Source of the DNA: Psammoneis japonica
Lineage: Eukaryota
DNA length: 64,000 bases
NCBI GenBank assembly: GCA_008632985.1
Contig: QPGO01000035.1
Coordinates: 359,899 to 423,898, forward strand
Reading direction: 5' to 3'
The notes below the pieces were generated by a model. The model worked only from the letters and a program-made list of their open reading frames with translations, had not been told where the DNA came from and searched no databases. The position numbers were made by a program, and so were the translations under genes. How positions within the stretch are numbered: position 1 is the first letter of the stretch; the number at the start of each line of letters is the position of its first letter. This document shows, one piece after another, positions 1 through 27,644 of this stretch.

Positions 1-3000
1 TCATGACTCATTGGGCACGATGTCAGCCAACAGCCGGTCCCCACCAAAGTCACCCCAGCGGACTTCAGTGGATTGCAGCCATTGATGGGTGCATGAGCTC
101 CCATCAATGTTGAAGGTGGCCAGCCACAAATTGTTGACGGATGGCAAGATGTGCCATGATGCCATGTCTGACCTCCAAGATGACCCTCTGCTGCTGGCAT
201 CTTTGACGAGTGTGGGGGCTGCTGCTGCCAAATCTCTCATCAAGGACTTGTGTGTGGGGTGCCAAAGCCAACAAGCGAAAGGAGCTTGCTGGAGCTCTGG
301 AAGACAACAACACTCACAAGAACCACAGTGCTTCCTCCAAGCTCATCAGCAACCAGGCTCAAGTTGAGATCACAGCCTCGAGATTCTCTCTCTGCGCTCT
401 CTCTGAGCCCTCTTCTTCTCCAGTTGGCAGAGCAACCCCACCTGCTGTGCCAGAACTTTGCCAATGAGCACAACTGCTTTCATTGTCACCAAACATGCAA
501 GCCACCAGATGGCCTTCAAGATTCTCTCTGACAAGACACTTGGAACATTTTGCATCAGCCTGGCATGTGTGCCCTGCCACCCATGATCCTTCAGCTTGCA
601 ACGTGTGTCTTTGCTCTCCCAGCAATGGGGAGCTTGCTTCGCCTGCCATCAAATCCTGCCACAACAGCTCTGCTGGTTTGCCAGATGGGGAAATCAGGGT
701 GCACAAGACACCAGTCTTTGACCCCTCAGACATTGTTGAGGGTGCACTTTTCCGGCAAGGGAAAAAAAGACTGACAGCATCATCACCAGGCTTGCATCAC
801 CACCATGACAGCAATGTTGTCAACAACCCAGAGCGTGCTGCAGCAAGTTCATTTGTTTGGTCAATGGCATCAAGTGACTGCACAAAGAGAAGTTCTTGCC
901 TGCAATGGCATTGTTCATTTGGCAAAGCAAGAAGAAGTTCTGCCACATGTTGTTGCACAAAGGGCTGCCAAAAAAGCCTTGAGGCATCACTTCAACTTGG
1001 GAAGGTTTGAGGTGCAATGCCATGCTTGGGGGTGGGAGAGTGGGGGCTTCATGGCAGAGACTTTTGGCTGTCATCATCAAGGGCAATCTTGTCACATGTG
1101 CCATCTGCTGTGCTGCATGTCCCGTGAGAGTGACCTTCTTGTTGATGCTGAGGGCCAAAAACATTTCCATGCCACTGCAAGAAACCAGAAGAAGCTCCTC
1201 CACATGGCCAACCAAGCTGGGCTGTGGTCCTCCCACACTGTGCCTTGCTGCAAGCATTGTCTTGAAGCCCCTCCTTGGGACCACAAACATGCGCCATGAC
1301 CCTCAACAAGTGTGGCAGCAACTGCAAATGGGGAGAGATGCAGCGGATCTTCAGATGAGCCAACTTGATGAGTGATCTGTCTTCCATGACTGGAGCTGCT
1401 GCAAGGGCTCTAGGAGCATCCCAGCTGGATGCAAGAAGATCTGAGTGCACCTGGTGTGTGTGCAGTGTGCAAAGCACAACAGCACATTGTGGGACATGAC
1501 TTGTGGTGGACATCACAGCATCTGCTCTGGTGGAGCAGCATCTCCTCATGGGCTTTGCCTGGTGATCTTCATGGCCAAGCTCAATGAACTCAAGATTCAG
1601 GCCACCGGCAATGGCAGCGCACCACACCTTAAAGCTGCAGTGAAGAAGAAGTTGCACATTGTTGTGGACCCTGAGTTTGAACAAGAGAGCTTGAGGGTCA
1701 CATCCTTCTCATTGCTCACAAGGCTCTGTGTGGCCTTTGCAGCTCTGGAATCAGGTTGCTTGTGAGTGCTTTCCTGATTGCCTGCATGCTGAAAACACTT
1801 CTTCCCCCATGCCTTTCCAACAAGCCTGACATCTGGACACACAGGCAGGGAGACCTCTGTGAGTGCACTGCAGTCTGTGTCAATGACCTGGATGTGATCA
1901 CTGTGAAGGGTCCCCAGGAATTCATGGATGCTGTGTCAACATGAAGTGCAAACACTCAAGCTCAAGGGCACTGGACCAATTGCGTTGGCACTCCATCTTG
2001 GCTGCAGTGTCTCTCCTGTGGTGACCCAGACAACATGTCATGCCTTGCACCCCATGCAGCATGTGCTGAGTTCATGGTTGACAGCTGGACACATCTTTGG
2101 CAAGAAACTGTGCATCAACACACCAACTTCATTGTGGGACCCACAACAAATGCATGGGGACCCTCTTGCAGAGGTCTGCACACATTTTTGCATGTGGCAC
2201 TGAAACATGCAGCCTGTGTGCACAAAACTGGTGCAGTTTCTGCTTGCAACAAAAATTTGAAAAAACATCTCCAGCAGTTTGCAAGACAGCTCTGGCACAA
2301 TGACGCATGCAAAAATTAAAAATCCACACTTTTTGGGTCACATGTCCCCATGCATTTGTGGGATCCCATGATGAAACTCCTTTGGACAATGGCAATCAAC
2401 CTGGCTCAAAACCTCTGAGCTGTGCAAACCCAATGGCACAATGGGCTCTGTTGCTTGGTCACATCAACGTTGCCATGGTGCCATGATCATGTCTTTCTCC
2501 AGCTTCAATGCTGCACCCCACCAACCAAGGCCATTTGGGCCATGCCACACACCACACATCTGTGGCATCTCATCTGAGGTGTGGTGTGGAGCTTTGTGTG
2601 CATGCACAAGGATGCACAGAAGAGCCCAGCTGCTGGGGCCTCCCAAGCCCATGCAGGGTTGAGCTCACACCACCATTCACAGCAACATGGAAGAGATTCT
2701 CTCCCAGAAGATGCACCTGGCTGAAAGCCCCTTTGCAAGTTCATTGCTGCATCCCAGCACACAGGATGCCTGTGACTGTCCTTTACTTTCTCAAAGAGTT
2801 TTTAGCTGATGGGCTCTCCAAGAAACAAGCCACCATCAAGTCAAGGCAGGTCTAACAAATTTGTTGCTGCAAGGAATTGCATGGAGCAGGCCATTGACCC
2901 TCTGCACACCACACTGGTGTGCTGCTGCACCCCCCCCCCCCCCCCCCCCAGCTCATGCAATGCTGGCCACATGTTTGGCAACAATGAGTTTTGGCTGAAG

Positions 3001-3510
3001 ACAGTGCGCTGCCACCCTGCACTCCAAGTCACACAAGCACCATGCCACCCTGTCATTTTGCCACTTCATCCAAGGCTTCCACAGCCCTGCTGATGCTCTG
3101 AGAGCAAGTGCTTGCTGGGGGTCATCCTCAGATCTGGAACCTCTGCTCCCCATCCCATCATGTTCTGGAGTCCAAAAGCCTTCCATTGATCCAATGTTGA
3201 TGTGGCTCTTTCAAGCAAAACAGAGGGAGTGACCACAGGATTTTAATTTGCATTTTGGTTGTGCACCACAATTGTTTGCATGCTGCAGCTGGTTTTTTCT
3301 CAAACAGGCATGGTGCTGCTGCTTGTTTGGCACATGGTTTGATTGATTGCATGTGCCACGCAGCTTTGCTCTGGAGCCACATGGCTCTAAGAATGAGCAG
3401 CAGCATCATTCATGCTGCACTCTGTCAGCACCTGCAGCAGTCTCTGTGCTGATGCTCATCTGCCATTTGGACAGCAGCAAGGTGTCGTCATTTTCTTCCA
3501 CCTGACTCAG
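1..3510 (+). mobile_element. Heavily decayed Ty1/copia relic (IN-RT-RH remnants plus 3' LTR remnant), related to the full-length copies
   Basis: PDGEIRVHKTPVFDP near 680-725 matches PDGEIRTPKMPVFDP of the intact copy. RT/RH-like fragments continue to about 3190. Purine tract agagggag then tgac near 3222-3233. LTR-like ctcatctgccatttggacagcagcaagg near 3455-3482. Many indels; ends approximate. Confidence 0.8.
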
Positions 3511-5990
3511 CTCCTTTTGCTTCATGCTCTGGTGTCAGCTGCTGTTTTGCATCAACGGACATCCTCACATGACAAGATGGCAAGTCATGTCATCATGGTT
3601 GTAACTTGGATGAAAATCTGCTCAACAAGAGCAAGAGCAGTGCACACCATTCAATGTGTCAACTGGGCTGTGACAAAGCATGAGTTGTTTGTGGTTTGCA
3701 CAGTTAAAAACAAGGCTCAGGCTCCTGCCATCAAGGGACTTCATTTGGGGGCAGATCTGCCATGGTGGTTGTGAAGTGCCAGCAGCAGCAATGTTGGCAT
3801 GGCAGCAGATTTGAGTGCATCACATTGGGCTCATTTGCACCTTGGCAAGCACACAGTTTGCAAGACCTTTTGCAGGCAGATCAAAAGAAGATCAGAGGTG
3901 CATGCGCGCGTTGGGCAACAACAGACAATTTTTTCACCTCTGAAGAAGATGATCAACAAAAAAACAACACTTCTGTCCTGCTGCTGTTTGTTGTTGTTTT
4001 TTTTTTTGTTGAGGCCCACCATTGCTGCAGTTTAAAGGTCTTTTCTGGAAAGGTGGAAGACTTTTCTTTGATGATTTGACCACTGATGCTTGCTTCTGCC
4101 TTGTCTGATGTTTCACAAGAAGGGCTGGTGGTGGAGAGTGGGGTTGGCAAAGGGAGCAACTTCTCAGCTGGCCTCCACAAAGTCATTTTTGGTGATGCCA
4201 TTCATGCAAAAAAGACAGAGTCTGATGAGCTTTTTTGCTTCCTTTTGTCTGAGAGGGTTCCTTTGCATCCTCTCAATCACTGCATTTTTCTTGCACCCTG
4301 AAACTGCCACAACAATGTTGTTGACATTGCCATTGCCCTTCTTGTGTTTTTCCATGGGTGTCCTCTCATCTCATTTCTTGCTTGTCAGCTGCCTTTCAGC
4401 AGAGCAGTGGTGTGATCTTCAACTCTGCAAATGTCTGTTCTCACACACATTTCTTTTTTTTTACATGAACGCTGCTCTTTCTGCAACTGCTCCTTTTGCA
4501 TTCTGCTGTTTGCTGCCACTTCACATTTCACTCATTCTTTGCTGCAACAGCCACAAATGAGTTTGTCATTTGTTGTGCCACATTGTGCCAGGCATTTGGC
4601 AGACTGCTCCACAGATCAAAACAGAAAAGAGGCCTGCCTCTCCAACAAAAAGGTCTTCAGACCATTGCAAAAATGTCAAAAAGCAACTGCCCAGCTGCAG
4701 TGCTCCCATGAAGCAACCCATGGGGCCACACTTGCACAATCCTTTCCCTCAGGTCCCTCTTGCAACCTGTGCATGACTCAAACCTCTCCATTGACTTTTT
4801 CAATGGGTGCCACTCATGTTGGCATTGAAGGCAACAAAAAAGCAAGTTGTTTTGTAAATCTTGTATGAGCAAGTTTGATTGTCAAACCAACAAGTCACAC
4901 AACCCATTTTGCCAGCGTCTTTGAAAACCTTCCTCAAACAACAAGAAGAGCACATGATGTGACACATGGCCATCATCTCTGCCAATGCAGGCCATCATGC
5001 GGGCCATTGCTTGACACTTGTGGTGATGCAAAGCACAACTTCAAGGAGCAGCAACTCCTCCCATGATTGCTTGTTTGCCTTTTTTCTAGATGGGCACCAA
5101 GCTGTCAAGAGTCCTGTGGAAGATGCTCACAAAAAATGCAGTGCATCGTTTTGCCAACCTGCTTCTGTTGTGCAGTGCTTCCATGGAGACTGCAGCTCAT
5201 GTCTTGGTGTCCTGTCACAGCACCTTCCCTGTCTGCTTGCATGTCTTGGTCTTTCCATTGACACTCTGAGAGTTGATGATTGCAACAACATCATCCAACT
5301 CAGCAAGTTTGACCTCTGGATCCATCACACCTGCCATTGAATCTACAACAAACAAAAATGGTCAGTTCCCTCAATTCACCAGTCTTAGACCCAGCTCACA
5401 AATGATGTTGTGAAAACAGGCAAACTCGCAAATGACAACTCGTCACACCCACAAATGCAACAACGTCCCATCTGCAATAAAAGCAAGACCGCAAAAACAA
5501 CAAAGCACCAGCCAGCAGCAAGGGTGTCGCAGACGGCTCCTCCAGCCACAACACTCACCTGTAGATTTCACCCATAGACATGGACATAAAAGAACAGGTA
5601 GAGAGGGAGATCATTTTGTCTCTGGGCCTCTAGAGGGTCGAGAGTGCAATGGAGTGGATTGCAGGCATGCAGGCTCAGCAGAAGGAGCGCTGATGCGATG
5701 CTGATTCCATTCTGCCTCTCTAGGCCTACAGCAGTCGCCTGCGTCGGCCAAAAATTAGGTCCCACCGCCATGGGCACAAACTACCATCATCCCTGCTGTG
5801 TCATAGTGGTGCTCAGAAGCATGCCAAGATGGGTGGCAGTGGAAATCTGCGTGCTGCACTAACTGCATCCGACAGACAGGACAGAGCACAAAGGCAGAAA
5901 ATAACAACAGGCTACGCGTATGATTATCTGCTAAAGCACGGCACATTAGATCATCAGCATAATGGGCCTGATCCCACAGAACACCAAAAG

Positions 5991-7600
5991 TTAAAGACCA
6001 AGTACAAATTGATCAAAGCATGTCGACATATCCTTGGCTACTTTGTCCACATTGCCCGTAAACTTCTGCGCAACATACGTCGGTTCGGCGTCTGCTGGCA
6101 CGACAAACACGGCAGGATAAGTTGGGGATTTCCCGAACCAAGGAGTTTGTCAAAGTATGTCTTGGCGTTGTAAGCGCCACTGTTCTTGAGGTCATGAACC
6201 TTAGCAATCGTCATTTGAAGAGAGTAAATTCTGCCGTCCGTATGGAAGTAAAAACAGTCGAACGTTGGAAAGTTTGTTGTTGTCGGCCATAGAAGGGTTG
6301 CTAAGAAACCACTGGCGCCATCAGAAACACGGACGGCACTAGCAGGTGCATTCGCAGCAGTAACTTTTTTTGTTTCAATCACCACCGGAACTCCCATAGG
6401 TGGAACATTCAACGGAGAGCTTGTGTTGTCATTTAAGTTTCGCATAATAAACGTACCACCTGCCAGTAAAGTTCGAATGGCATACGCTTCAAAGAGAGCT
6501 CCAGCATAACCTTCTGCACCAGACATTGGGGCCAAACTTTGTCTCGCAGCTTTCAATGCCTCTGCAGATTTGACTGCAAGTTTATCGGCAACCAGGCGCT
6601 CGGCATAACGCGATACGAGCTCGAATCGGGGGGTGTCTTCGTATCCTTCACCATTCACAACATCAACTTTCCAAAGAACAAGTGCGTGCACCATAAATTG
6701 TTTTGTGGCCTTGTTTGACACTTGCATTGATACCATCCTTGTGATCGAGGAAGCATCAACAAGCGCCACGGCATTACCTACTTTTTCCCTTGCGTTATCT
6801 GGTTCGAATAGATAACGTGTAATGCCACCTATATGCAGTAGGTTTGTTTTCACGACCTCTTGGTCGACCCCAATAACAGAGGCAATTCCAAATGCTTCTT
6901 CTTCAGTGAGCGCTGGAACCGTGTAGTATCTCCGCCGACTGATGATGACAGCATCTTCGATGTTCTTGATGCACAAACTTGGCGACGAAGCCATGAGAAT
7001 TACGCCTTTGCATCTCTCGAGATTGAGCGGTAGTGCGCAATCATCCATCACGATTAGACCGGTAGCTGGCATGTGTTCCTTGAGTTCGCTATAGACTTGT
7101 CGAAAGATTCCAGAAAGAGTCACTTTGCCATTTTCCCAAACTTGACATTCGACAGAGTCGGTTTCGTACTTAGCGGCCTTTTCGGCGTGACAGAGAATGA
7201 TTTTTCCTTTTCCAAAACGAGCCCTTAGACGCACGAGGCCGTATGCCAGATATGTTGATTTGCCGACCCCCGAAGAACCGCGCAGTACGAACAGCTGCTT
7301 CCTATTTTCGGTATTTGACTTCAGAACATTGCCTATCTTCCGCGCGATATCCTCGTAGCACTGACGGGCATAAGCCTCCTTCACCAATCCAAAGGGTTCA
7401 CCAATCTCGGTCATATTAAACGAGCTGTCGGATTGTGCAGCCTTGACAGCGTCTTCAAGGAACGAGAGTGGCACCGAATAGTCTTGGTGCAGCGGCGCCA
7501 TCTTCGCTTTTTTTTGCGCTCTTACTTCTTCAATGCTACAATCATCTCCTTTTCTCTCCACTTCTTTTGCTGTTAAATCCATTGCTGGGGACAGGCTCAT
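5991..7600 (-). CDS. Crinkler/RHS-like P-loop NTPase + PD-(D/E)xK restriction-endonuclease-fold protein, with a 1-nt frameshift near 6124-6127
   Basis: Walker A LRGSSGVGKS, Walker B IVMDD, C-terminal NFPTFDCFYF...SLQMTIA..H. Adding one C to the C4 run gives PTYPAVFVVP...QKF...DQFVLGL*, the typical CR-REase ending, with the stop at 5991-5993. Normal TA and CG content. Confidence 0.75.
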
Positions 7601-7839
7601 GGTTGCTGTGTTATTGCGTGTACAGGTGCTTTATCTGTTGGTGGCCGGTGTCGCACAGGCTTACTCTGAGTGAAAATGCACCAGCTCCGTCATCTGCAGG
7701 TTGTAAATTGAGTGTTTGTTGTACTGACGGTGGCCGATGGGTTTTCAATACAATGCTTCTTACGTCTTCTCTCTCTAGTCTACCATTGTCAAATACAAGC
7801 TTAGACTAGACTACAAGCAGTATTGTCAATTGAAAGTCG

Positions 7840-7883
7840 TGGCTGAAAAAGTCTGCCTGTCAGTGCGTTTGGGGGTTTTGCAG
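7840..7883 (+). repeat. Dispersed 45-bp repeat, probably a TE terminus (second copy near 10717-10761)
   Basis: ggctgaaaaagtctgcctgtcagtgYgtttgggggttttgc occurs twice. The first copy sits at the switch from normal to TA-depleted DNA. Confidence 0.65.
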
Positions 7884-9220
7884 TGCATTTCACTTACCAT
7901 GCTTTAACTTTTTTTTAAACTGCACTTCAAGCTTGCACACAGTGCTGTTGTCAAACGTTGCCTTTGGAGATGAACGCTTTGGCACTGTGAACTTAAGTGG
8001 AACTTTGCACCCGCCTTCCACCAACAGCTTTGCAAGGAAATCCCCCTGCCAAGTGAGTTTGACTTGGCACTCCTCTGTTGACATTTCCTTCATGAGCAAC
8101 TCTTCATGCTCTGCAAAATCGTCGTGAGAAATGACCCCATCCAACATGCGAACCTGTTCTTGTTTGTCCAAGTCAATCATGAGTTGTTTGGACAGCTTTT
8201 CTTCAACATTCTGAGCCATGACAACACCTGGATGAACCACATGAGAGCATTGAGATTGACTTTACACCTCTGGGCTGTGCCCCGACAGGGCGGGTTTCAG
8301 TTTGGTGCGAGCCAAAAAGAAATCACTGTCATGCACTGCATGATGCTGTGCCACTCACCCTTTTGTTTCACAAGCAATCAGAGTGGCAGATTGGTGATGA
8401 AAATTCATGATTAAAGTTGCCTTGGAGTGGGTTGTCATGGTGGCAAAGACAAAATCCACATTTCACAACAAGCCTCATTGGCCTTGAGGCAGAGTCTTTA
8501 GCTTGTTTGGAGTGTCTGCATTGGTTTTGATCACTTGTTTGTCAAGTTTGATGAGGTTTCGAATTCCACTCATGCACATTGATGGAAGCAGTGGTCCAGT
8601 GTTTGTGGCATTTCCTGCTGATGCCTCTGACAGACACGAGTTGAGAAAGGACAAAACCACATTGTGCCGTGAAACTTTTTGAGTCATTGGAGAAACAGAC
8701 AGAATTGTCTTGGCCAACCAAGGACCTGCCTGTGAGTTTGATGCTCTCTTTGTCAAATGAAGCATTGAAGCATGTGGAGCATGGCAGCATGCCATGTTGA
8801 CCACTGCATCCTGTTGGTCCGGATCTAAACACTTGGAAGCAAATCCTCATCAAGAAGATCAACTGCATGTCTGCACACCACCAAAGTCACCTCAACAGCT
8901 GATCAGCTGTCCAAGCACTTTTCAATGTCAGCTGCATGCCCTCAGCTTCTACACAGGTTTCTACACACCTTCTTGTGCCAATGTCGCCCTTCTCAGATGG
9001 TGTTGATTTGGCTCCAACAAGCCCATTCTGTCCACATTTACCAATGGCACATCCTTGTTGCAGCATGATGAGCAAAGTTCATCAGTGGAAAACGATGAGT
9101 GTCCCGGCTTTTTGGCTCACATGCTGGTTGTCATTTCTCACAATTTTCTGTTGTCTCAGAAAATTTTCTACACAGGTTCTGGTGCAAATTCCACGCGGAT
9201 CTGCAGATGCTGCTGACGAT

Positions 9221-9700
9221 CTACATGTCACTTCCCTGGCCTGCTTTCATCCTTGCAAATCAGTTCTCAATGCTGCTTCTTTTCCTTGCCATGCAATCAA
9301 GTCCTTCACTCTTCATGGCGCAAGTGCTGCTTCTGTTGCGGCCCTCTTCAGCAAGAACATTGGCTGTCCTTTGGAGTCATTTGATTGTCGTTGATTTGCT
9401 GCTCCCATTGGTCTTTCCATGCAAGATCTGGCATTGTTTCCATGTGTCACCTCTGGCTGTCTACGTGTCACTTCTCCAGACTACTTTCATCCTTGCCAAT
9501 CAGTCTTCAGCCTCTCTTGTTTTCTCTGCCATGCAATCAAGCACTTCACTCTTTGTGGTGAATGTGCTGCTTCTTTTGTGGCCCTTTTCAGCAAGAATGC
9601 AAGTCATCCTGTGGTGCCATTTGATGGTCTTTGGTTTGCTGCTCTCATCGGCTTTTTTGCGCAAGACTCAGTGTTGTTTCTACTTGTCAAGAATGTTTTC
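9221..9700. repeat. Degenerate tandem duplication, 240-bp period
   Basis: ctacatgtcacttc at 9221 recurs as ctacgtgtcacttc at 9461, with colinear downstream sequence. Confidence 0.8.
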
Positions 9701-10224
9701 TTTGATGACCTGCTCGTCTTGCCTTCAAGGCTCCTTTTGTGGACTGTTTTAAAAACCCATCTGAATGCAATTGTCCGTTGCAGTTGTGGTGTGCCTTCTG
9801 TGGCTGTCATCAACAAGCATGCAACAAATCCCTCATGTGAGTCATTCCTTTTCAGTCATCTTGGTGGGGTGTCATCTTCTGGTGATGCCCATTCAGGCTG
9901 ATCCTGTGCAAGCTCCTGCCGCACTCAACTGTGTGCTGGGAGTGTGGGTCAGAGCCGGCACTGGCCTGGCTGGCAAAGGAGTGACAGCACTTAAAAATGG
10001 ATCTGTTTTTTTTTTTTTTGATCAGCTGTCCAAACTGCTGCTGCATCATTGCTCTGGATGACCTGGAGCTGTTGGCTCGATGTCTGATGCACTGACCAAG
10101 GGAATCTCAGTGCCGGTGCAGTCCACGTGCAAGTGCAGCAACACTGGCGACAATGCATGCATGTGAAAATGGAAGCAAACAATGTGTGAGACAAGATGTG
10201 ATGACAATGACATTGTTGGGCCAT

Positions 10225-10480
10225 TTAAATTCAGTTCAGAGCTCACAAATTCAAAGTGTGATGAAAACAAACTAACAGCAAAGGACAACAAAATCAAGGC
10301 TCTTTGACACCCCCATCGTCAACTTGGCAAAAAGAACAAAAATCAACACTGCTTAAATTCAGCTCAGAGCTCACAAATTCAAAGTGTGATGAAGACAAAC
10401 TGACAGCAAAGGACAACAGGATCAAGACTCTTTGATGCCTGCATCATCAACACGGCAAAAAAAACAAAAATTAACACATG
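10225..10480. repeat. Tandem duplication, 128-bp period
   Basis: ttaaattcagYtcagagctcacaaattcaaagtgtgatgaa at 10225 and 10353. Confidence 0.9.
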
Positions 10481-11000
10481 TTTTGCATGTCTCATTTGTT
10501 GACACTTGCTTCTTTCCTGATTCCTGAGGAACACAACATGTGCAATGTCAGCATCGCTGTCTCCAACAGGCTGTTGCTGTGCATGGTCACAGACCCTTGG
10601 AAACTGCCAAGCGGCAAATGCAAAAGGAGTCGAAGCACATCATTGTGCTGCTTTTTTTTCTCACAATGAGCGAGCAAGAACACAAAGCTGGGGGGGGGTC
10701 TCCAGCCATCTGCGCTGGCTGAAAAAGTCTGCCTGTCAGTGTGTTTGGGGGTTTTGCCAGTTCAATTTTTACACAGTGAAAGATGTCAATTCTGTCCTGC
10801 GTTCACCAAAAATCCCTGCTGACACACAGATTGACAGACTCTTCCAGCACAAATTCTGCACAAGATGTGTGCCACAAAAAATGTGCAACTTTCTGTGCAT
10901 GTGGTGAACATGCCAACAATCGGGGTGCTGTGCATGCGAAATGTGTGTGGCTCATGGCTGCACTCACCAGAGTGTCACTGCAAGTGCCGGCATGCATTGC

Positions 11001-11092
11001 TGCAGACCAACAAGGGGAGATGACCCATTGCCTGTTGAAGATTCTGCATGCAGACCAATGAGGGGAGATGACCCATTGCCTGTTGAAGACTC
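11001..11092. repeat. Tandem duplication, 48-bp period
   Basis: tgcagaccaa(CA/TG)aggggagatgacccattgcctgttgaaga occurs twice; the copies differ by a reciprocal CA/TG. Confidence 0.9.
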
Positions 11093-12072
11093 AGTGATGA
11101 GTCATCATCCTCCCACCCACACCACCACTGTTTGGACACAAAAGTTGGCATTGGAAGAAATGCTGCTGCTTCTGGCTCATTCTTCCAAAGAGCTTTAGCA
11201 GCAAGTCAAATGGATGGTTTAAATTGCTCCCACCTCTCCCTCTCACTGGCCACAATGGCTCTGGATGTCACACAGCAACTGCAGCAGTGTCACAAGAGGG
11301 TCCGTTCATTGACCACTGAGTGGTTGGTGACTGCAGACTTTTTTGTGTCAGTCAGTTGGGAGGGGGTTGGGCAGTTGGGCAGTTGGGGGGGGGGGCATCC
11401 AAATTTGAGAGTGTGTCCCTTGGATTTTGGAACAGCATGTGTTGTTCAGTGCAAATGAGTTGTTTGGATTCAGAGAATGATCATTGAGGACATCAGAGGT
11501 CATGGGGACATCCCAAAAAATTGACAAATTCTCTACAATGGGTGCATGGAACTGTTTTTTAGAAGAGCTCGAAAGTGCTGTAAAATTGGGATTGCCAGTG
11601 TGGTGTGTTGACAAATGCATTGAGCTTTGCATGAAGAGAATTTGTCATGAACTGCACACGAAAAAGTCACGTTGATGTGCTCCAGCTCTGGGTGGGACCT
11701 CATGCTGCTGAACTGTGACATCAATGTTTTTTTGGATCATGCCACATCTCACGCACGCACCTTTCTACATGCAATGTTTGACAAAATTGTTTCATGCTCC
11801 CTGTTTTGCAAAGCCAAAGGCTTTCTATTTCCAACATTCATGAGAATGAAAGTGGGCTGGGTTCATTCTTCAAGCATGAAGGAGGAGACACATTCACAAA
11901 ATTGCCTCTTTTTCTGTTGGCAATCATCCACATTTTAATTGCTGATTGAATTTGCTGTGGAGCTTGCACGCAGAATTGCACGGGCCCAATGTCACATGGA
12001 GTCTCACCCAGGACTGGAACCCATTTGTTGGAAAGGTGTGTCATGCAATGAGTGGGTTTGTGCGATGTGCCA

Positions 12073-15612: not shown

Positions 15613-17399
15613 ACAGCCTCTGTTGAATCCTCTTCCTCTTTTCTGCACCATCTTCATCTTTGCCAGTCACACCCAAGAGCCCTGGTTGCAAGACAACCCC
15701 TTGGGGTGTTGAAGTGCGAAAGTCACAAGTTCCCTCCACCTGACAAGCAAGCAGCCTCTTGACAAAAGGCTTGGAGCTTGAAGCTGTCAGCATCCAAGCA
15801 ATGGTGGAAAAATCCATCACTCTAGAGGGTGCAAGGAGCAGCATGTGCAGGCTGCATTTTGCATCATTGGTGTGGTCAACAATTTGAGAAAACAGATGGC
15901 CCCATTGTTGCATCTCCACAAGCAAGAGCACAACAGCAAAGAAGCAAACTCAAGAAGGTGTTGCTGCATTTCTTGTCCATGTCTTGGATGAGGTCACCCT
16001 TTGTTTGTTCTGCCAAGGTCTTGCCAAGGTCAACAAAATGTCTTGCAGCTGCAAACTGCAAACCTTGCATGCAGCATTCTTGGCGACACCTGATGTGAGC
16101 TGTGGTTTGAAATCTGACAGAGAAGAAAAAAGAAGCTCAGGCTGTGTGCCAATTGCCACGACATTGCCTGTGCACTCAAAAGTGACCTCGTTGTTCACCT
16201 GGGATGCCAGCAGTCTGGTGGGTCTTATCCTCACTGTCAAGAATGTTTGATTTTTAATTGGGCATTTTTCTGTCAAACTAAGATGCATTGCCACCTTTGC
16301 AGCTGTTGCTGTTTGCGCAGCCAACAAATTTTCTGCTGCATGAAAAAGAATGCAATCTTTCTGGTGCTCTTGTCATGTCCTGAGCAAAGTGCTTCTCACT
16401 TTTCCAGATCCAAAACCTTGCAGTCATCAGTCTGGTTGGATTTTTCCTCCCTCCAACATTTTTGCTTTCTGACACCACTGCATCCCCACTGTCTTTTTTC
16501 ATTGGATGATTGTGTTTGTTGTTAAAACACCCATGCTGGTCTTCCAAATTTGCTTTGCACTTGCTCTCCTGCTTCTTGCTGATCACTTGCTGCACAATGT
16601 GACTTGCATTTGTGTGTTCTGTCAGCTCATTGTGGCACACATCTTTGTCCATTGCACTGCACTGGCAATGCAGTTGGATGGTCTTGTGTGTCCTCATTGC
16701 AAATGGTCTGGTTTTAATTCCAAGCACTGTCTTCTTTGTCACATTGCCACCAGCAGCTTTGATGTTCCCCCATGTTTTGCCAAATCTTTCAGTTGTCTTT
16801 GTTGTGAACAATGCAGGCTCAACACAAAAACCAGGTGCAGCATCACCTTTTGTGTCACTGCAATTCCTCTGCTTTGTTCCCTTCTGTGTGAGTGCAGTTG
16901 TCTTCAAGAGCTGACACATCTCATCCAGACTGGTTGGACTTTGATTTCTTTCTTGCTTCCTTGTGAGGATGCTGCCTCTGTTGCCTCCATTGGGTCCACT
17001 TCTGATTGACCCAAGTTTCCCATTGCTGAGCTCCCTTTTCCAATGCTGCCCAGCATCTCCAGAAGCATCCACCCTGCTTCGAGAAGAAGGGTGTGCTTCT
17101 GTGCAATGCCTCACTGCCATTTCCAGTGGCCTCAGTCCATTTTCCCCTCCAGATGACAAAAAAATGGCAAAGTTGATGATGACCCTGTGCACCAACAATG
17201 TCCCCAATCCTCCCCTTTTTGAAGTCTGGTTGAGTCCAGAGCTGCCTCCTCCTGCCAACTTGGAAGTGGTCTGCACCCCTTTCTGTTCAGCCCTCCAGTC
17301 ATTTTTCTGCCACTGCCAAGGCTGCTGTTGCAAATGCTTGCCAATTTGCCTTGTTTGCCAACAATGGCACATCTGCTTTTGGAGATAAAAAACCTGTTG

Positions 17400-20300
17400 A
17401 TGTTCCCAAGTTCAGCGCAGCTGACCCTCTTGATGGCACTTGCAATCCTCTGGCAATGTCACATCTTGCAGCTGACACATTTCCTCCTTCTCCTCCTGAC
17501 AACTTGGTTGCAGATTGTTCATTTGATCCCAAAAATTCACTGGGGCAAGCACATGTTCTTGCCCCTGATGAGAATTTGAATGCTCCTCTTGTGTGCTTGC
17601 TGCAGCACTGTTTGTTGCCTGTTGTGTCTTTATCACTGGCCTGCTGTTGCAGTTGACTTCAATGACAAAGCAACAAGAACAGCTCACAAAGTTCATGCTA
17701 AAAAGTGATTGGGTTTGACTGAGCCTCCTGCTGTGACTGCCAGCTGTGACCATGAAGCAACTCCCAAATCTTCCTCTTCCCCACACTGTGACTGTGGTGC
17801 TTGAACTTGAGTGCAACAAGCCAGCCCGCCAACAGAAGAATGGGCTAGAATGCCGTCAGTCCCCACTGCTCTCAGTCCACAATCTCACCAAGACTGTGCA
17901 GGATCTTTTCACAGAGCCAGTTTTCAGGTGAGCCCAGATGACGTGCAATTGCCACATGTGCCTCCTACTGTGGGTGGTGACTTGGATTCTGACTGTGGCA
18001 ACACTCCATTTCCCAAACATCCTGGTGGCTGGTTGTTGTTGACTCAAAGTCAAGACATGGGCAATGGAGATTGGCTCCATGATGCTGTTCAAACACTCAG
18101 GAAACTGCCTCCCATTTTCATGCTCACCTTGTCAGCAAAGACTTCATGCTCATGGCTGAACAACAACAAGCCCACAGCCCAAGCATGTTGTTCAACTTTG
18201 AGCCAAAGCAAGTCAAATGAACAGTGTAAATTGTTTAAAAGTGCCTGTTTGACTTCAAGTCAAAGTGAGCCAAATGATCACCACAAATCATTGAGAGCCA
18301 TTTCCACTTTGACACAGCAACAGCCAAATGCTCAGTGGTTGCTCAGCTTTCAAATTCTGAGCAAAGAAGAAATTTCAAAAAGCAAACGAGGTTGCTTTTT
18401 GCATGATGTCATCACCAAAATTTGGAAAAAATGAACAAATGAGTTTGCATTCCATCCATCCTTTTTCTGAAATGGTGGTTGCAACTGTGATGCTTTGGCT
18501 TTCTTTGACATGTGACAACAACAAAAGTGTGCTTGCATGCATTTCATGGCCACAAGCTTTGAGGAGGCACACTGTCTGTTTGGATTGAACTCTGGGAGCT
18601 TGACGTTGAAAAAGCTGTGCATTTGACAGTGGTGATTTTGCATCATCCACGAGCTTGTCCTGAACTGAGTGGAGTTGATGTTGGGTGTGTTTCAAATTGC
18701 TGCACTTGACAAAACAATTGAGGGCTGCAGGCTTGCAGCATTTTACATCACAGAGACTCAAAACAGCAAACAGGTTGACAGTCAGCAAAGCAGCAACAGG
18801 GTTTGCCAACTCTCCCCAGGTTGTGGCAGTGAAAACTCTCATGCACCCTGCCCCACAACCAACAGCCAGAGGAAAGAAAAAGGAAGTGACTCCTCATTGC
18901 ACCTGTGTCAACACAGAGATGAGCACATGGCACATGCCAAAAGATTTGAGAAGAACAAAAAGCAGTTTAATGCACAAAAGAAGAAGAGAGTCAACGGGCC
19001 ATTCCTGCCCTGAGCTTTGGGGGCCCTCAGCCAAGCAGCACTTGTTGTTTGATCTGTGGTTGGTTGAAATGTTTGTGGCAATCTTTCTGACTTGCAGCTT
19101 GAGGCATGTTGGTGCATGAACCAAGTGTGCAGTGTTTTGGGGGCGTGCCACTTGTTGGAGCTTGTTGAGTGGAAAGCTCTCTTCCATGCTTGAGCTTTGT
19201 TTGTCACATGCTCTGCATCACAAAAGCACACCTTGTGTGACAGCCACTTTGTCTGTTGTCAAAGTTCAGGCTGCCACCATGACCATCCATCAAGCATTTC
19301 TTGCAAAACTTTTCTGCCTGTTTCCCTCTTCCTCCACAGGCAGAGCAGCTCTTGGCAACAGTGCCACCCATGTGCCACCTTGTGCTCAAGACTGCTTTCA
19401 AATTTCAACCAAGCTGCCAGCCAGCATGTCCAACAACTCAGGGCTGTGCTGGGCTCAAACCACAAGATGAGGCAACACCTTTGGTGCTTTGGCAGCAAAA
19501 CTGAGCCCTGCCTTTTTCCCATGTGACTTCCCAGGAGTGTGCCCTCCTTGCTGGCTTTTTGCTGTTTGCTGGCAGAGTGCGCCAAGGTCATTGCAGCTGT
19601 GGGCACACAGTGAGCCAGCACCAAGACAGTCATTGGACAGCACTTTGTTGTGCCATCAGCAAGGAGCACAAGCTGTGGCTGGGCTGCCCAAACCTTCATG
19701 TTCTTGCAGCTGCTTGCAGCACTGGCTCTGAGCCAAGTGAGTGATTTCACCAGCCTGGCCATGTGGCAATGCTCTTGCACCCTGCCCCCTCTTCACACAC
19801 ATCAAGATTTGCAAGACTTTGCCATGACCCCCAATTGTGCATGCTGTGGCCTTCACACCTTCTTCACAATGCATCTGAGCCAACTGTCATTGCAGGCCAG
19901 ACCCATGTGCCTGGCCTTGGACAGAGCTTTGTGCAGGGTTGGCAGCATGTGCAGCCTTCACCGCGGGCCTGGCCACCTCCTCACTGCCCACCTCTTCACA
20001 GCATCCAAGCCACCACAATGCAGCATCATCATGGAGTCAGTGCAGCACAGCTCAAACAAGAGAACCACACCGGAGGCACTCTGAGCTTGCAGCCAGCCTG
20101 GGGTTGGGTTCAAAACCAACTGGGGCTGCTTGACTCTCAGCAGCATGCTGTCACTTGCAGCTGGCCAGTGTGGGCCTGCCCTCTGCCATGCCTGTGGCAG
20201 CCACACCCTGTGCCACAAAGAAGCCAGCACAACTCTTTTGCCCCACTTGTGCAGTTGAAGAGCAAAGTCATGAGTGAGGTTGGGGCCCAAGAGTCATTGA

Positions 20301-23000
20301 GCTTCCTCTGAGGAGGTGACTCAAGATGTGCCAGCACAACCTCAGCAGCCATGACATCTCTCATTCTTTTTTCTAGAACTTGCTTGCAATGCAGCCAGGG
20401 TCTGAGGCAAGCAGTCAAACTGACAAGCTTTTCTTCTCTCCAGCCCACCAACCCAAGTGCAGTCTCTGAGTCAATGTGGCACAGCTTGAGCAGCCAAACC
20501 ACACTGGGAGGAGCACCCTGAGCTGACAGCTCTCTAACTGGCCTCTCTGGCAGGTGTTTTGGCTGCAAACCAAGCTGCAACACTCAGCTTAGATTCACTC
20601 AGTCAGCATCACATTGTTGTCTCCTTGCAGTTGCAGTGTGTGTGCTCACCCTTCTTTGCACCTGCAGCAGCCACCCCCTGGACCACAAAGCCAGCTTGCA
20701 TGGTCAATTTTCAATCCCCTCCTTTTTCTGTTTTCCTTTTATCCAGCAATGAATGTGAAAAAATGCCACCTTGTCAATTGTTTCAACAAGACTGTCAACG
20801 GTGCTGCCAATCCATGTGGGATGGAGCTGCTCATGTGCTTGCTTGCCACAACTCAAGAAGGCCCCCCTTGTGGCTGGCATCCAGTCAGATTCATTCCAAA
20901 CATGGACAAGCAAGACAAAAAGGAAAAGTTGGGGTGCCTTGTTGTTGCCAATTGTTGCCGCATTCTAAAGTCTGTGGTGTGCTTTGTAGACTGCTTCATT
21001 GCCAGGCCAATCCACTCATTGTTTGTGTCATCATTGGAAATGAGCATTGGTGCATGAGAGCCAAGAAATGTTGCAACTCTCTCTTGGGCAAATGCTCTTG
21101 GTCAAGAACAAATTTGTGGACTCCCTCATGTTGCTGACAATGCACAAAATTTCCTGTTGACATGGGTGACAACCCACTTGCTGGTGCTGCACAAGCATGG
21201 TGGTGTCAGACACAATGATGCAGGTGACAGAGGCAGGAATTGTCCTGCACCTGATGGAGGTGACAGTTGGTGAAATGCCTGACAAACAGAAAGAGGAACT
21301 CAACCAGATGGCCTCAGAATTGTTTTGCACAGCTTGGCATCATTCTCCATGTCAATGGCAGGACCATCCACAGTTGAGAGTGAACTGTGGTCTTTCCACC
21401 CTTTGTGACAAGAGGATTGGAGAAAGCTGCTTGTGCGTTGACAGTTGTTGGACACATGCCAGCTGGCAAAAAGCTGCAAGAGAAGAGGTGTGACCCATTC
21501 TTTGACAGCAAAAAGAAGCAGCTGACAACTTTTAAGGGAAAAAGCAACAAGATGAGCAAATGTCTTTTCCAAAAGCAATTCCAAAGAAGAGGATGATGAT
21601 TCCATTCTTGATCTGTCTGATGAAGATCTTGCAATGGACAGAGAAAACAATGGAGGAGAAGAAAGAAAATGAAGCCAACATTGCCCTTCCAGCTGACCCA
21701 CCTGCTCCAGTTGCTCTGACCCCAACACCCACACACCAACTGACCAAACCACAAGAGGTGTGTGGCCTGATGTTCTCTGCAGTCCGGGGGACACACAGCA
21801 TCATCAGTGCACAATGCAGCAAGCTCATTGCTTGGTTTGTCTGAGCTCTGGGAGCAATTTTGTGGCCAGTTGGATGACAGTCACTTTCCAATGCCATGCC
21901 AAAAAAATGGGTGAAAAGAGACAAAATCCCACCTGATCAAACATCCACCCCTCCTCCCAATGGCTTGTCTGAAGCAACTCTGGACAGTGACAAAAACTTT
22001 GTGCAATGTGCAAATTGGTGACAAAACCTTGCCGATGGGCACAACCATTTGTGCAGATGTGGAAACCAATCTTCTGAACTCCTTCATGTTGCTCATTCTC
22101 AGGAGGAAATGGCTGCAGAAAAATCTGTTGATTGCAGAGTGGGCAATCTGTTGGACTTGTTGCATTGCATGCTCTGTTGTTTTCCATGATGCCTTTTGCA
22201 TCTGTGGGAAGGCATTCTGTGCCAAAACTGGCAAGAAGGTGGATTTTAAGTGCTGAGTTGCACTGATCATGTTCAAGACAAAAGGTTGTCTTTGATGTGC
22301 ACAGCAAATGCTCACTTGTTCAGGAGGACTGACAAGTTCTGTTCATTGCTGTGTCTCATCATTGACTCTTTCTTGTGAAGAATTTCTCCACAACAACTGG
22401 TGAGAGTCATCTTAAGTTTTGGGCAAAGCTGCTGGCAAAGACTTGCCAGGTTGCTCTTGGTGCCAACCATTTCCTTGACCAACTCATTGTTTGATTGCAT
22501 GCCAAGCCAGCAGCTTGGCAGAAAGTCAGGTGTCTCACACACTTGAGCATGCCATGATGCAACGTTGTTTCATGTGCACCCCACACACTCTCTGGCCCTT
22601 TGCAAGGGCAGCAAGCAGAGAACACAGGGTTGGGGATGTCATGACATTCTCATGTCAATGGCACAAAATTTTGCATCGTGTGTGTCATCATTTCACTCTA
22701 AATTTTGAGTTGGGTGGCAACTTCACTTGTGCCAGCATCAGCCACAGAGGAGGTGTCTGCAATCAAGGCTGACCAGGAGGATTCTCAGACAACTTTGTGG
22801 CCTTCAGGGAGCAGGAAGTTGTTGAGGAGCACTTGGAGGCCCAAAGGCACTTCTGGCCAGTTTGCTGATGAGCCACAGACCCACACAGTGGTCAATGGGG
22901 CAAGCACTGAGGCAGCAGCCTGCCAGGAAGGTGCCTTCAAAGGCCTTTTGTTCACATGATGTGGGTGGTCTGCACAAAGATCTGACAACAGCTTGGCTGA
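17400..23000 (-). mobile_element. Probable decayed non-LTR retrotransposon (RT plus RNase H remnants)
   Basis: Ordered degenerate motifs on the minus strand: xRTI (about 21245), LISND (about 21035), VVQG (about 20680), HID (about 20475), VTAGS (about 17745) and a YRSEL-like relic (about 17600). Weak and frameshifted; boundaries approximate. Confidence 0.35.
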
Positions 23001-24589
23001 GATGCAGTCATGCTGCAGCTGGGGGGCAAGATTGTGATCAACAATGGCAAGGCCGGATGATGCGGGTGTGGCTGTGATGTGCAACGTCATGGGGGGGGGG
23101 GGGGGGTCTGTGCCCCAAGGAGTTGGCAAAGTGAGAGTTGGGAATGAGGCCTGCTGTGTAATTAGCATTGAAAGATCTGGTGGCAGCAAGCCATTGCTGC
23201 AAGAGGGAAGCTGGAGCATGCATGCCACAGAGTGACCACCACTTGTGCCTCAGTCAGGGAGGCCAGAAATGGCCACGGACAGAAAAACTGTGCAGCACAG
23301 AAGGATGCCCAAGTTGGGGGCTTCAAACAAAAGGCAAGTCCGGGGGTGGGCCAGCACTGGGCACTGTGAGGCAGCCACACAATGCAAAGTGCACTCCACC
23401 CAGGGACCAAGAGACTGAGTCTGTGCAGTGAAATGATTGTGCAACTTGGGTGTCCACTGTTTGAGGCATCATGTGCAATGCATGAAGGACAGCACAACGG
23501 GGTGGAAGCAGGGTGCAGCAGGAGCCAGAGTGCCACATGGCTTGATGCCACCAGAGGCAAGCCACACAAGGGATGCAGAAGGACAGCATCCCCTCATGCA
23601 GCAGCTCTTGGGCTGCTGACAGCAACAGCAACCACAGCATCAGAGAACAGGGGTTGGCCTCCATTTGCCAGTGGCAGCAGGGTGTGAAAGCATGTGATGA
23701 GAAGGATGCATCCAGTGGTGCACTTGCTGTTGGTGGAATGAGCATGTCTGCAGCCAACCACATCTGCAATGCACAGCATGGGATGATGCAGCAATGGCCA
23801 GGCAGCCATCAGGTGCAGCAGCCAGGCCATGTGCCACCACGACATCATTCTCAACACCAAGTTTGGAGCAATGCCTCCTGCCACAAGTGAAGGACAATGC
23901 CACAGTCCAGGATGGTGCTGCAGCTCAGTGTGAAGGCCAACAGGCAGCCTGCCAAAATTGTGGTGCTGGACTTGTTGAAGAAAAAAGGCATGACCAAAAG
24001 CTGGCTTTGGAGGGTCATTGCTTTGCTGCTGCCACCAAAGGAGGCTCCACAGTGACAGGAGCTGCTGCCAATGTGCCAGAGGAGTGTTGGCCCTGATTGC
24101 AAGTTGTTGTCAATGCCAGGGGCAAAGGGAATGAAGGAGAAGAGGAAGAAAGAGAACAGGCTGCAAGCACAGCACAAAACTCACTCTCCAGTTGTTGACA
24201 TGCAGAGCCAGCAAAATGGACAAACAGCTGTGACAACAACTTGCTGACTCTTGCAAGACTTGAGCATTCATGACAGCCCACCTTTTCTGACTGTCTTGAC
24301 AACACATGCTGATGAAATGACATGATGCTGCATGAGATGACATCAACTTTGGACACTGCAAACATTGTCCAAGTGTTGAGGAGGCAACAACAACAAGGGA
24401 AAATGTGCTGTCAAATGAGTTTCAAAAAATGGCTTTGTTGTGACAAGTCTCTGTTGAAGCAAACACACCACAACCTTTGCACAGCACCACAAGTGAGTTT
24501 GCTGGTGTGACACCAACTCAGATTTGAGAACACACACCATCACAAACAGCCCACCCTCCATGGTTGGTTGCTGTTTTTTCCAATGGAGA

Positions 24590-25040
24590 AAGCACAAGCA
24601 GCGGTCACCTCCATTTGTGGGATGAAAGACAAAACCATTGAACAATTTGGAGGATGGACATGTTTCAATGATTGCATCTCTGCCACAAACCCCATCATCT
24701 GAACACACCCCATGTGCCTTGCCCTCCTTTTTACATGCAAGGAATTTGGTTCTGCCATTTGTTTTCTCCAGAAACTTGTGCTCAGTCATTTAGCACAGAC
24801 TTGGCTCAAATTCTGCATGTGCAGATTTTGCACCAAGTCAACATTGTTTTGCTCAGATCACATTTTCTAACAAGGAGAATGAGTGAAATGAATTCCCAAT
24901 GTGCAAAAAGGGGGGCAAGGCACTGAGGGTTTGTTTGGATGTCAGGGTTTGCAGCAGAGATGTGATCATTCTTGAAACATGCCCATCCACCAAATTGTTC
25001 AGTGGTTGTTTCCCACAAAATGGAGGTGATCACTGCTTGT
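24590..25040. repeat. Foldback or MITE-like inverted repeat (arms about 24590-24750 and 24890-25040)
   Basis: tcacctccatttgtggga...tgaacaatttggaggatggacatgtttcaa pairs with ttgaaacatgcccatccaccaaattgttca...tcccacaaaatggaggtga. Confidence 0.7.
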
Positions 25041-26249
25041 GGAGTGTTTTGATGGCAGAGATGGACTTGAAGAAAAAGTCTGCACAGACTCAGTGTGTTC
25101 CTTTGATGGCCTCTGTTGAGCCACACACAGGACAAGCAATGGAGATCCATTGTGCTGCACGCAGCACTGTGTGCACACAGGCCAGAGAGTGCTCATGTGA
25201 GATCACATGCACAAATGCCAAGTGCTGGCAGAGAGCAGCTTGCATCTTGGGTGTTGCCACTTGCAAGGAGAATCGCAGTGGCAGTCTGTCTGTGTGATGT
25301 TTTCTGTGCATGTTTTGTGCCTTTGTCCATCCCTGCCACCTCCAGCCCCCACTGCAATTGTCTCTCCTTGCAAGTGGCCCAACACCCCAGGCCAGCCTTG
25401 CGCATGTGCACACATGGGAAAACCAGGCCTGCGGGGAGCATTGACCACTTGTCTTTCTTTGTGGGTGTGGGTGTGTGCCGTTGCATGCTGCATTGCCTGT
25501 GTGCAAGTGGGGCCCCACCGCCGGGCGGGGCTGGCATTGCACTGCACTGCAACAGCAGGGTGGCATGGCCACCGCACCTGTGACATGGATGACCATTGCA
25601 TTTGATGGCTCGTGCAGTTTTTGGCACTGTGGCAAGGTGTGTGGACACTCTTTTTTGTCCAATTTCTGACACTCTTTTTTTCCCAATGTGTCGCCAAAAT
25701 GAACACTTTCAATTTTTCGAAATCGGGCAAGTGGGGGACTGTGGTGCTCAAACAGTGCAGAATTCTGTGGTGTGTGCTTTGCCACAATGTTGCAAATTGA
25801 AATCATGTGGCGAAAGCACAGTGAAACTGGCAAGTGGTGAAAAACATCCAAATGACAACTGGAAGGAAAGCAACAACATTGCAAGCCGTGAGGAGTCAGC
25901 AGTCCTCAGCCAGGGGCCAATCTTGCAAATGCTGCACATGTTGACCCTGTGCAAAGCTTGTGTGAGGGGCCAGGCACAGGGATGTGCAACAATGGCTTCA
26001 TGGCCATTGGCCCCAAGTTGGCATTTGATTGGGAGCCAGCACTGAGGGGCCATGAAGTGTGGGGTTGGGAGCCCAGCCAGCTCACACTGTTTGTTGCTAC
26101 AAAGTGCTGTCACTGCTGTCTTTGCATTGCCACCAGCCAGGTGCAGTTGGCCCCAAGTTGGCATTTGATTTGGAGTGACTGCCAAGGAGCTGTGAAGTGT
26201 GGGGTTGGGCAGTCCAGCCAGCTCACATGCTTTGCTGACAACAGAAAGT

Positions 26250-27340
26250 GCTGTCACAGCTGTCTTTGCATTGTGGCACCAGCCAGGCACACATGGCCAG
26301 AGCAGCCCACTCTTGGCACATCCTGCTGACAAAGCAGGCAAAAACAGTGTGACTCTTTGGTGGTTTTGAGCTGGCATGCAGGAGGTCTGGACACACCCCT
26401 GGGAAGTCAAACAGGCAGGAAGGCTCAGCATTTCCACCAATGCCAGAAATGTCAGCTTGTCTTGAGAGAGATTTGAGCCCACTCAACCCTGAGTTGGGTG
26501 TCTTGGCTGGCAGGTTGGAAAGCATTTTTGAGCACAGTCTGGCATGTTGGCAGCACTGTCACCAAGAGAGCTGCTCTTCAGAGGAAGAGGGAAACAGGCA
26601 ACAATGTTTTGCAAGAACTGTTTTGTCAATGCATGGTTGGGTGGGATGGGGCAGCATCTGGACTTTGATGGAGCATTTGGGAGACAAAGCTTGAGCACAG
26701 AGAGCCATCCACTCAAGCTCCACAAGTGGGACATTCCAAAGGTGACACCACACATGGGCCATGTGTTCATGCACCAGCATGCCTCAAGCTGCAAGTCACA
26801 TGAAAAACCACCACCAACCTTTCAACCAACCATCATGACATGACAGGGCAAGAGGTTTGAAACAAGAGTGATTCATTGACTCTCTTCTTGTTTTGTGCAT
26901 TCAAGAGCTTCTTGTCCTTCTCAAACATTTGTTGTGCATTGTTGTCTCTTTTAACTCAAGTGCAAAGAGGAGTCACTTTTCTTGTTTCTTTCTCTTGAGG
27001 GGTTGTTGGTTGTTGAGTGATGCAATTTTTGTTGTCACATTTTTGGAAATGTTGGCAAACCCTGTCAATTTGCTTGGTTGTCAACCCATTTGCTGTTTTG
27101 AGTCTCCAAGGCACAAAATGCCACAACTCCAGAGCCCTCAATTGTTTCGTCAAAAGCAGTGCTTTAAAGCACATCCAACATCAACTTGTCTCAGTTGAAA
27201 TCCCAGCTTGTGGGCAATGAAAAATCATGAATGTCAAACAAATGGCTGCTTTCAACATCAAGATCCCTGAGTTCAATCCAAATGTGACAACACGCCTCAC
27301 AGCTCATGGCCATGACACATGCAATCATGCTTTGTTGTTG
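26250..27340 (+). mobile_element. Second, inverted fragment homologous to about 18500-19700
   Basis: aaacaattgagggct...gagactcaaaacagcaaa...cagggtttgccaac (18710-18810) is found reverse-complemented at 27050-27150. FMHQHASSCKS appears in both. Confidence 0.7.
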
Positions 27341-27644
27341 TCATCATGTGCTTGCATCAAAAATGCCAACAGATCAAAGTTCAGGAAAAGGATGGAATAA
27401 AAATTCATTTGTGCATTCATTGGTGGCATTGGCGCAATGACATTTGCGGCAGAAGCGATCAAAAATCCTTGCCCATTGTTGACATTTCTGCATTGCTCAG
27501 AATTTGAAATCTGACCACTGCCGTCAAGCACTCAGCTTTCTTTGTGTCAAAGTGGAAATGACACTTGACAATTTGCACTGGCCATTTGGCTTTCTTTGTG
27601 CAAAAGTGGAAATGGCGCTCTTGACGATTTGCACCAACCACTTG

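Follow-up and report, generated by a model that had tools for sequence, protein, structure and literature searches.

A 64,000-nt window of the genome of the pennate diatom Psammoneis japonica (assembly, 91.4 Mb) contains transposon relics from which the dinucleotides TA and CG have largely disappeared, together with two young copia retrotransposons (copies A and B) and a block of host genes that provides a control. The locus raises the question of whether TA and CG are lost by one mutational process or by two, and in which order. An initial annotation had proposed that TA is lost first and CG later, by separate routes that both lead to TG and CA and provide a built-in age scale. Coordinates here refer to the window, and dinucleotide counts are given as observed/expected. 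We conclude that two different mutational processes very probably act on transposon DNA with two-process kinetics, and that the order of loss is an outcome of their rates.

Rates of TA and CG loss in a young copia family

The copia elements have an RVT_2 reverse transcriptase, long terminal repeats (LTRs) with TG...CA ends, and 5-bp target duplications. Copies A and B are 96.5% identical, and their 241 differing positions comprise 71 at which TA is opposed to TG or CA, 49 at which CG is opposed to TG or CA, 84 in 42 CA/TG doublets, and 37 others. Both copies lie outside the span (1..27640) to which the initial annotation applied. They had been described as nearly TA-free yet CG-rich; they are indeed depleted of TA (69/337 in A and 104/342 in B), but about 30% of the TA sites in the body are kept, and CG is undepleted rather than enriched (507/554 and 514/548, respectively).

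A further 40 young copies were fetched as the best BLAST matches to two parts of B, and 11 of these were dropped as incomplete or rearranged; the 29 near-full copies remaining form, with A and B, a set of 31. At 184 sites TA, TG and CA are all present among the 31 copies, and both TA and CG occur at only 8; this co-occurrence of TA with its two products shows that TA is the earlier state, resolved by each copy independently. Within A and within B, the two LTRs are mismatched at 9 and 11 positions of TA or CG type, respectively, and at none of ~132 others, such that the changes came after insertion. Ages derived from LTR divergence are inflated in P. japonica, as these LTRs seem 3-4% diverged with no neutral-type difference at all.

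In the body of the 31 copies, TA has been converted at 3466 of 5610 sites (62%; 128/182 in A, 130/182 in B) and CG lost at 672 of 14633 (4.6%; 23/473 and 20/473), with 315 other private changes in 31 x 5451 columns (0.19%). The pooled TA:CG hazard ratio is 22; it is 28 without the 24 TA and 31 CG sites that have a subfamily-shared pattern, and the three copies that have changed least give 40. Dropping shared CG sites pushes the ratio up and site heterogeneity pulls it down, but by any of these estimates TA conversion is much faster than CG decay, as had been claimed. The two hazards are correlated across the 31 copies (r=0.64); the intercept, 0.0005 ± 0.008, is close to zero and indicates that both clocks begin together. 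The order of TA first and CG later thus holds on average, as an outcome of the rates, but not as successive phases. The ratio scatters beyond counting noise (chi2 75, 30 degrees of freedom), which, with the four cluster copies described below, bears out the separateness of TA and CG loss, although the two remain coupled in time and place.

The young copies are depleted of TA relative to their own ancestral state, the reconstructed reverse transcriptase part having 44 TA sites where 73 are expected (0.61), and relative to two metagenome relatives (2 usable loci out of 58 candidates scanned), in which the same part has TA at 0.69 and 0.64 against 0.27 in B. One of these relatives has lost CG (0.18) and kept TA. 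The possibility that TA is lost within the retrotransposition cycle, by RNA or cDNA editing, or is inherited from TA-poor sources is extremely improbable. Patterns that suggest subfamily inheritance are seen at 24 of the 182 body TA sites, but the differences between the two LTRs of a single copy contradict it for most sites; TG and CA arise at equal frequency after correction for context, and the erased stretches include DNA without any match to the copia family.

The long-run TA hazard is ~1 per site against 0.002 elsewhere, a mean excess of ~500-fold. If the mutation rate reported for Phaeodactylum (4.77e-10; PMC6604790) is borrowed, the young family would have an age of no more than a few million generations, with roughly 2-5e-7 TA conversions per site in each generation.

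Signature of the two processes

TA conversion depends strongly on context. A pyrimidine 3' of the adenine, on the A strand, adds 1.04 ± 0.17 to the log hazard, a ~2.8-fold rate (TAY is preferred), and the rare A>G changes outside TA (<1%) have the same preference. Bases two steps off on either side slow the whole TA site, which suggests recognition of the duplex. The strand term is nil (0.10 ± 0.13); a strand bias was considered in view of a raw excess of TG over CA on the sense strand, which arises because Tyr codons make TAY commoner there, and which vanished once context was modelled. The TA sites surviving in relics are 58 RR, 36 RY and 1 YY (R, purine; Y, pyrimidine), compared with 120, 378 and 195 in genes; these classes are slow on both strands, mixed and fast on both strands, respectively, and the survivors thus fit the TAY preference. 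The CG changes are likewise strand-symmetric (349 versus 320) and occur at 0.016 per site, ~10 times the rate of other C>T changes (0.0012-0.0017), and CA>TA changes stay at the background level of 0.0014 per site.

A single origin for both signatures could be sought in error-prone patch repair, in which the T:G mismatches left by deamination of 5-methylcytosine (5mC) draw a Y-family polymerase that miscopies nearby TA. The copy-level correlation reported above would fit, as would two weak clustering effects, with conversion slightly in excess near CG losses (0.10 ± 0.05 within 10 bp) and near one another for TA sites no more than 8 bp apart (0.11 ± 0.04). However, same-strand runs do not exceed the null at any of four distances in the 31 copies (0.549 against a null of 0.543 within 20 bp), A>G at AA is below 1% compared with 62% at TA, conversion is unrelated to the distance to CG (0.56-0.64), and the clusters described below lose CG but little TA. 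We regard patch repair as very unlikely.

Older copies and the age scale

The older copia copies of the window lack both dinucleotides, as the initial annotation stated. The span 1-3510, which includes the oldest relative, has TA at 8/207 and CG at 23/231, and the internally deleted copy at 12597-15612 has 15/193 and 35/180. At the TA sites of the family the oldest relative has 1 TA, 16 TG and 18 CA, and at the CG sites 4 CG, 45 TG and 38 CA; the corresponding numbers in the deleted copy, whose LTRs differ at 16 of 97 neutral-type sites, are 6, 35 and 30, and 17, 59 and 63. Relic blocks 1-5400 and 8000-27640 together have TA at 95/~1645 and CG at 182/~1484, with TG and CA at ~1.85 times expectation, in agreement with the saturation originally described. 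Both blocks fit the statement that the surrounding relics lack TA and CG (Table 1), but a gene island within the same span (5500-7900; TA 101/162, CG 116/138) lies untouched between them, with sharp edges.

Copy A sits inside an erased older relic, a sister of which (18135-19402) matches both flanks of the insertion. This gives an age order free of any model, and it is the same order as that of the LTR-dated copies. Dating of older copies used 20 loci, with 8 lacking an LTR pair and one non-LTR match dropped. At 0% neutral LTR divergence TA is at 0.20-0.49 and CG at 0.88-0.95; at 1-6%, TA is at 0.05-0.21 and CG at 0.52-0.67; and at 13-16%, TA is at ~0.05 and CG at 0.16-0.23. TA thus falls first against neutral divergence, with the exception of one copy at 2.5% that has TA at 0.48 and CG at 0.83.

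The proposed age scale holds only coarsely. In 16 mid-aged copies CG loss tracks private transversions (rho 0.55, p=0.03), but TA loss does not follow them significantly (rho 0.22, p=0.42). The rates of individual TA sites span ~100-fold, which makes for a poor scale, and TA loss is a coarse, unreliable age marker. Old copies keep 5-19% of their TA sites, and a recent onset of the TA process was considered on this account, but it is unneeded, as heterogeneity predicts 5-12% survival at long exposure.

The grading of loss by age also argues against an artefact of base calling or assembly at modified bases, as does the near absence of sites that read TA in some copies and CG in others. Word-based contigs from run X1 (depth 57-71) have the same letters over ~9 kb, matching without a single differing letter five pieces that together span most of 15465-24765; X1 may itself have supplied the assembly, and no library type is recorded for it. 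Even so, an artefact is barely credible. Over the ~9 kb of this unique relic no allelic difference is seen in run X1; either both homologues carry the same relic sequence or just one of them has it.

Spared 5' ends and exempt clusters

Both clocks largely spare the 5' end of the element. In 15 copies, TA is kept at 198 of 255 sites in the 5' LTRs and at 90 of 240 in the 3' LTRs, and CG has been lost once and 14 times, respectively; the first 700 bp of the 31 copies have lost 22% of TA and 1% of CG. Copy A (46/58) is one of three copies in which conversion has reached the majority of 5' TA sites.

A more complex relationship is seen among 14 mid-aged copies, in which the two losses come apart. 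Six erased sister copies have lost 347 of 398 TA (87%) and 389 of 861 CG (45%), and four others have TA losses of 64-98%. The remaining four are spared, with 86 of 266 TA (32%) and 197 of 576 CG (34%) lost, corresponding to hazards of 0.39 for TA and 0.42 for CG; their CG losses are mostly private. They sit on four contigs, in 15-22 kb clusters (Table 1) where copia, gypsy-type and LINE-like elements are nested; these clusters keep TA at ~0.3-0.8, and two of them adjoin fully erased relics. A nested element common to two clusters has the same near 1:1 loss of TA and CG. The clusters lose CG with little loss of TA, and the two processes are therefore separable. Among 30 young copies, TA-rich flanks accompany low conversion (rho -0.51, p=0.004).

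An origin of the spared copies from a whole haplotype or a contaminant is less likely, given that erased relics lie beside the clusters on the same contigs and that the young family is shared. The cluster elements have mixed orientations, and the single-strand orientation of clusters that give rise to Piwi-interacting RNAs was not seen among them. The exempt clusters may represent a centromere, a small-RNA source or an introgressed block.

Candidate mechanisms

The explanation that we favor, and consider probable as a whole, is that an adenine deaminase acts beside CpG decay. Both processes would start on chromosomal transposon DNA once it is silenced. For TA, silenced transposon chromatin would for the most part recruit an enzyme, in all likelihood a deaminase of the TadA/ADAT family that converts A to inosine, which is copied as G; the chances that adenine deamination is the chemistry of the TA clock are evenly balanced. 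This preference is based on the strict 5' T, the 3' pyrimidine and the Bigelowiella precedent described below. Editing would disable elements mainly through conversion of Tyr codons to Cys or His, and the reverse transcriptase part of copy B has Cys or His at 12 of 17 conserved Tyr positions. The CG clock would reflect the deamination of 5mC that a DNMT5-type enzyme deposits, CG methylation being inferred here from sequence. Frames with Tudor, DNMT-motif and SNF2 matches stand in a row and constitute a DNMT5-like gene, and TadA-like and ADAT2-like deaminase genes are present in the genome, the latter with the Asn motif. We also note a single open frame (L075:313-1785) in which a deaminase domain is joined to one of the 2OG-Fe(II) dioxygenase type, and two separate A_deamin genes of the ADAT1/ADAR type (L163 and L164).

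Several points weigh against this explanation. The deaminases resemble ordinary tRNA enzymes, and there is no expansion among the 9 matches. TA is palindromic and there is no strand bias, such that A and T chemistry are indistinguishable. The adenine-deaminase model leaves the sparing of the clusters unexplained, and the copies analyzed are best BLAST matches rather than a random sample, with some changes common to subfamilies. The strict requirement for a 5' T and preference for a 3' pyrimidine are likened to TadA, whose TAY preference we presume. That preference was not found in the available portions of PMC9399415, PMC10960570 and PMC8845244, and CG methylation, according to the part of PMC11884799 consulted, need not be mutagenic in algae with DNMT5.

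If thymine rather than adenine were the target (RTA to RCA), an oxidized T, for example 5-hydroxymethyluracil or 5-formyluracil, in silenced repeats would mispair with G. The spectrum would be identical to that of adenine chemistry, with no strand term, and modified thymine occurs at TpA in dinoflagellates. A genome search found no Tet_JBP match, which counts little against the idea as the controls were blank too, and we consider a thymine target unlikely.

A distinctly unlikely scenario is a reversal of repeat-induced point mutation (RIP), whereby an extra protein of the C5-methyltransferase fold flips a base at TpA within repeats and both clocks derive from the methylation machinery. This would accommodate their common start, their common 5' sparing and the slowing of whole sites by bases two steps off, with its suggestion of duplex recognition. 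The genome has 27 DNA_methylase matches, including at least four related single-domain enzymes with an SPPC/SSPC motif, and diatom DNMT4 is described as related to RID, with unknown function (PMC9998398). Against it, the clocks come apart in the clusters and genic DNA retains TA in its short tandem repeats. Moreover, we know of no chemistry by which a methyltransferase fold converts T to C, and the DNMT4/RID-like label of the extra enzymes is presumed from a motif rather than from a tree.

One C5-methyltransferase gene is itself multi-copy (L056-L058, L062, L065 and L068; C297, C301 and C28) and lies in a TA-erased repeat of at least 8 kb, which may be a mobile element or a viral relic; a Pfam search of the frames beside its copies gave no match. 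Three more related methyltransferases with the same type of motif are in genic DNA (L052, L053 and L059), one of them with few eukaryotic relatives among the proteins of the collection searched, and an Atlas search with the N-terminal part of one methyltransferase gave no usable match.

Other features of the window

The window features and the exempt clusters are listed in Table 1. The photolyase of the host-gene region has its best named relatives in pennate diatoms. The long frame of the gene island is intact; its Atlas look-alikes are mostly unnamed, some being CRN/RHS-like, and a Pfam search of the frame gave no match. The short tandem repeats in genic DNA (63014-63586, 48281-48680 and 43902-44125) have normal TA, which argues that repetition alone does not trigger the TA process. 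Relics in 8000-27640 contain many long spurious open frames, because TA loss takes away TAA and TAG stops, and these are a trap for gene callers. Related inverted segments of ~280 bp at 11950-12350 and 25419-25698 have very high depth in run X1 and are probably the ends of a high-copy DNA element.

Table 1. Features of the window and locations of the nested-transposon clusters.
Feature	Position or locus	Strand	Remarks
Relic block	1-5400		TA 17/344, CG 31/329; both erased
Oldest copia relative	321-3510, ends approximate	+	pol remnant and 3' LTR remnant; ~61% identity to B
Spared gene island	5480-7920, edges within ~100-200 bp	-	530-codon open frame 6038-7630
Relic block	8000-27644		TA 78/1301, CG 151/1155 (8000-27640); remaining TA in slow contexts
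Old copia copy	12597-15612	-	internally deleted; both LTRs; 5-bp target duplication
Older relic split by insertion of copy A	25900-27644, resumes at 34756		TA 4/120, CG 8/99
Young copia copy A	27645-34755	-	276-bp LTRs; 5-bp target duplication
Host genes, control region	35300-49500		TA 592/996, CG 796/785; photolyase, SacI and others
Young copia copy B	51906-59013	+	RVT_2 domain; 5-bp target duplication
Copy B 5' LTR and leader	51906-52700	+	TA 50/55, CG 49/44; largely spared by both clocks
Nested-transposon cluster	L125, L141, L167 (C403)
Nested-transposon cluster	L168, L132, L169 (C356)
Nested-transposon cluster	L171, L128, L170 (C196)
Nested-transposon cluster	L173, L139, L172 (C160)

Comparison with known systems

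The elements themselves are Ty1/copia retrotransposons like those of diatoms, with RVT_2, TG...CA LTRs and 5-bp duplications, and they have metagenome relatives of 60-70% identity. Unlike copy B, the relatives retain Tyr, 103 of 120 being without Cys or His at the 17 conserved positions. Among copia proteins from ENA assemblies, two without names (P0210 and P0166) have Cys or His at 9 and 6 of these positions, respectively, and may reflect the same signature in other organisms or be proteins from P. japonica.

The slow clock fits the 5mCpG decay of methylated transposons, being strand-symmetric and CG-directed at ~10 times other C>T changes in a genome with a DNMT5-like gene, and DNMT5 is reported in diatoms (PMC9998398); such decay cannot yield TA>TG/CA. 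Editing of the ADAR or APOBEC type in the retroviral cycle gives one-strand bias and identical changes in both LTRs, and neither is seen here, the LTR pairs being different. Fungal RIP converts CpA to TpA in strand-coordinated runs, with transitions confined to repeats, sharp borders and inactivation of transposons. The diatom process has in common with it dinucleotide-specific transitions in repeats, sharp borders and inactivated transposons. However, its direction is opposite, with TA lost and CA>TA at background, there are no strand-coordinated runs, and few stop codons are created, Tyr being lost instead. RIP depends on a RID/DNMT4 methyltransferase and operates ahead of meiosis in response to duplication; the diatom genome has several putative candidates for such an enzyme, classed by a motif that we take to be diagnostic.

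The closest parallel is the hypermutation of integrated viral DNA at TpA in Bigelowiella natans (Mettrop et al., bioRxiv 10.64898/2026.01.13.699255). In both cases A>G and T>C changes are restricted to TpA and yield TpG and CpA, foreign or selfish DNA is affected and genes are spared, and rates are hundreds-fold or more above background (~1000-fold in Bigelowiella, where the process has been seen de novo and is active in only some lines; the diatom process is read from copies). An ADAT-type deaminase (ADAT2 with Asn) was proposed there and is unproven. The hosts differ, a rhizarian as opposed to a diatom, as do the targets, viral DNA as opposed to multi-copy retrotransposons and relics, and the extent, TA being at 0.45 of expectation in Bigelowiella and at ~0.06 in the diatom relics, where the process has reached saturation. 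The diatom case adds the CpG clock, the TAY context, the sparing of 5' LTRs and the exempt clusters; the words diatom, CpG, LTR and trinucleotide are absent from the preprint's main text in the version available to us.

A joint reading of the two systems would posit a diatom DNA adenine editor, like that of Bigelowiella, that acts on methylated transposon chromatin and skips protected cluster loci. The editor would possibly be an old defence of this branch of the eukaryotes, and the protected clusters an archive, a guide-RNA source or a centromere. We advance this tentatively and hold it to be doubtful as a whole.

A literature search, lacking most subscription journals, found no reports of TpA loss in diatom transposons and only the Bigelowiella preprint; by this search P. 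japonica would represent the second lineage with TpA-directed hypermutation, here saturating on transposons. Diatoms can be edited and DNMT5 knockouts are reported in Phaeodactylum (PMC9998398), so the enzyme is open to a knockout search, and a natural DNA adenine deaminase, if that is what it proves to be, would be of interest to base editing. The mutation type itself is known from Bigelowiella. To it the present analysis adds the rate ratio of the two clocks, the way in which they are coupled, the context of TA loss and the existence of exempt clusters. Possible mechanisms are constrained by that ratio, by the preference for TAY and by the sparing of 5' LTRs and clusters, and these features offer built-in controls for what directs the process.

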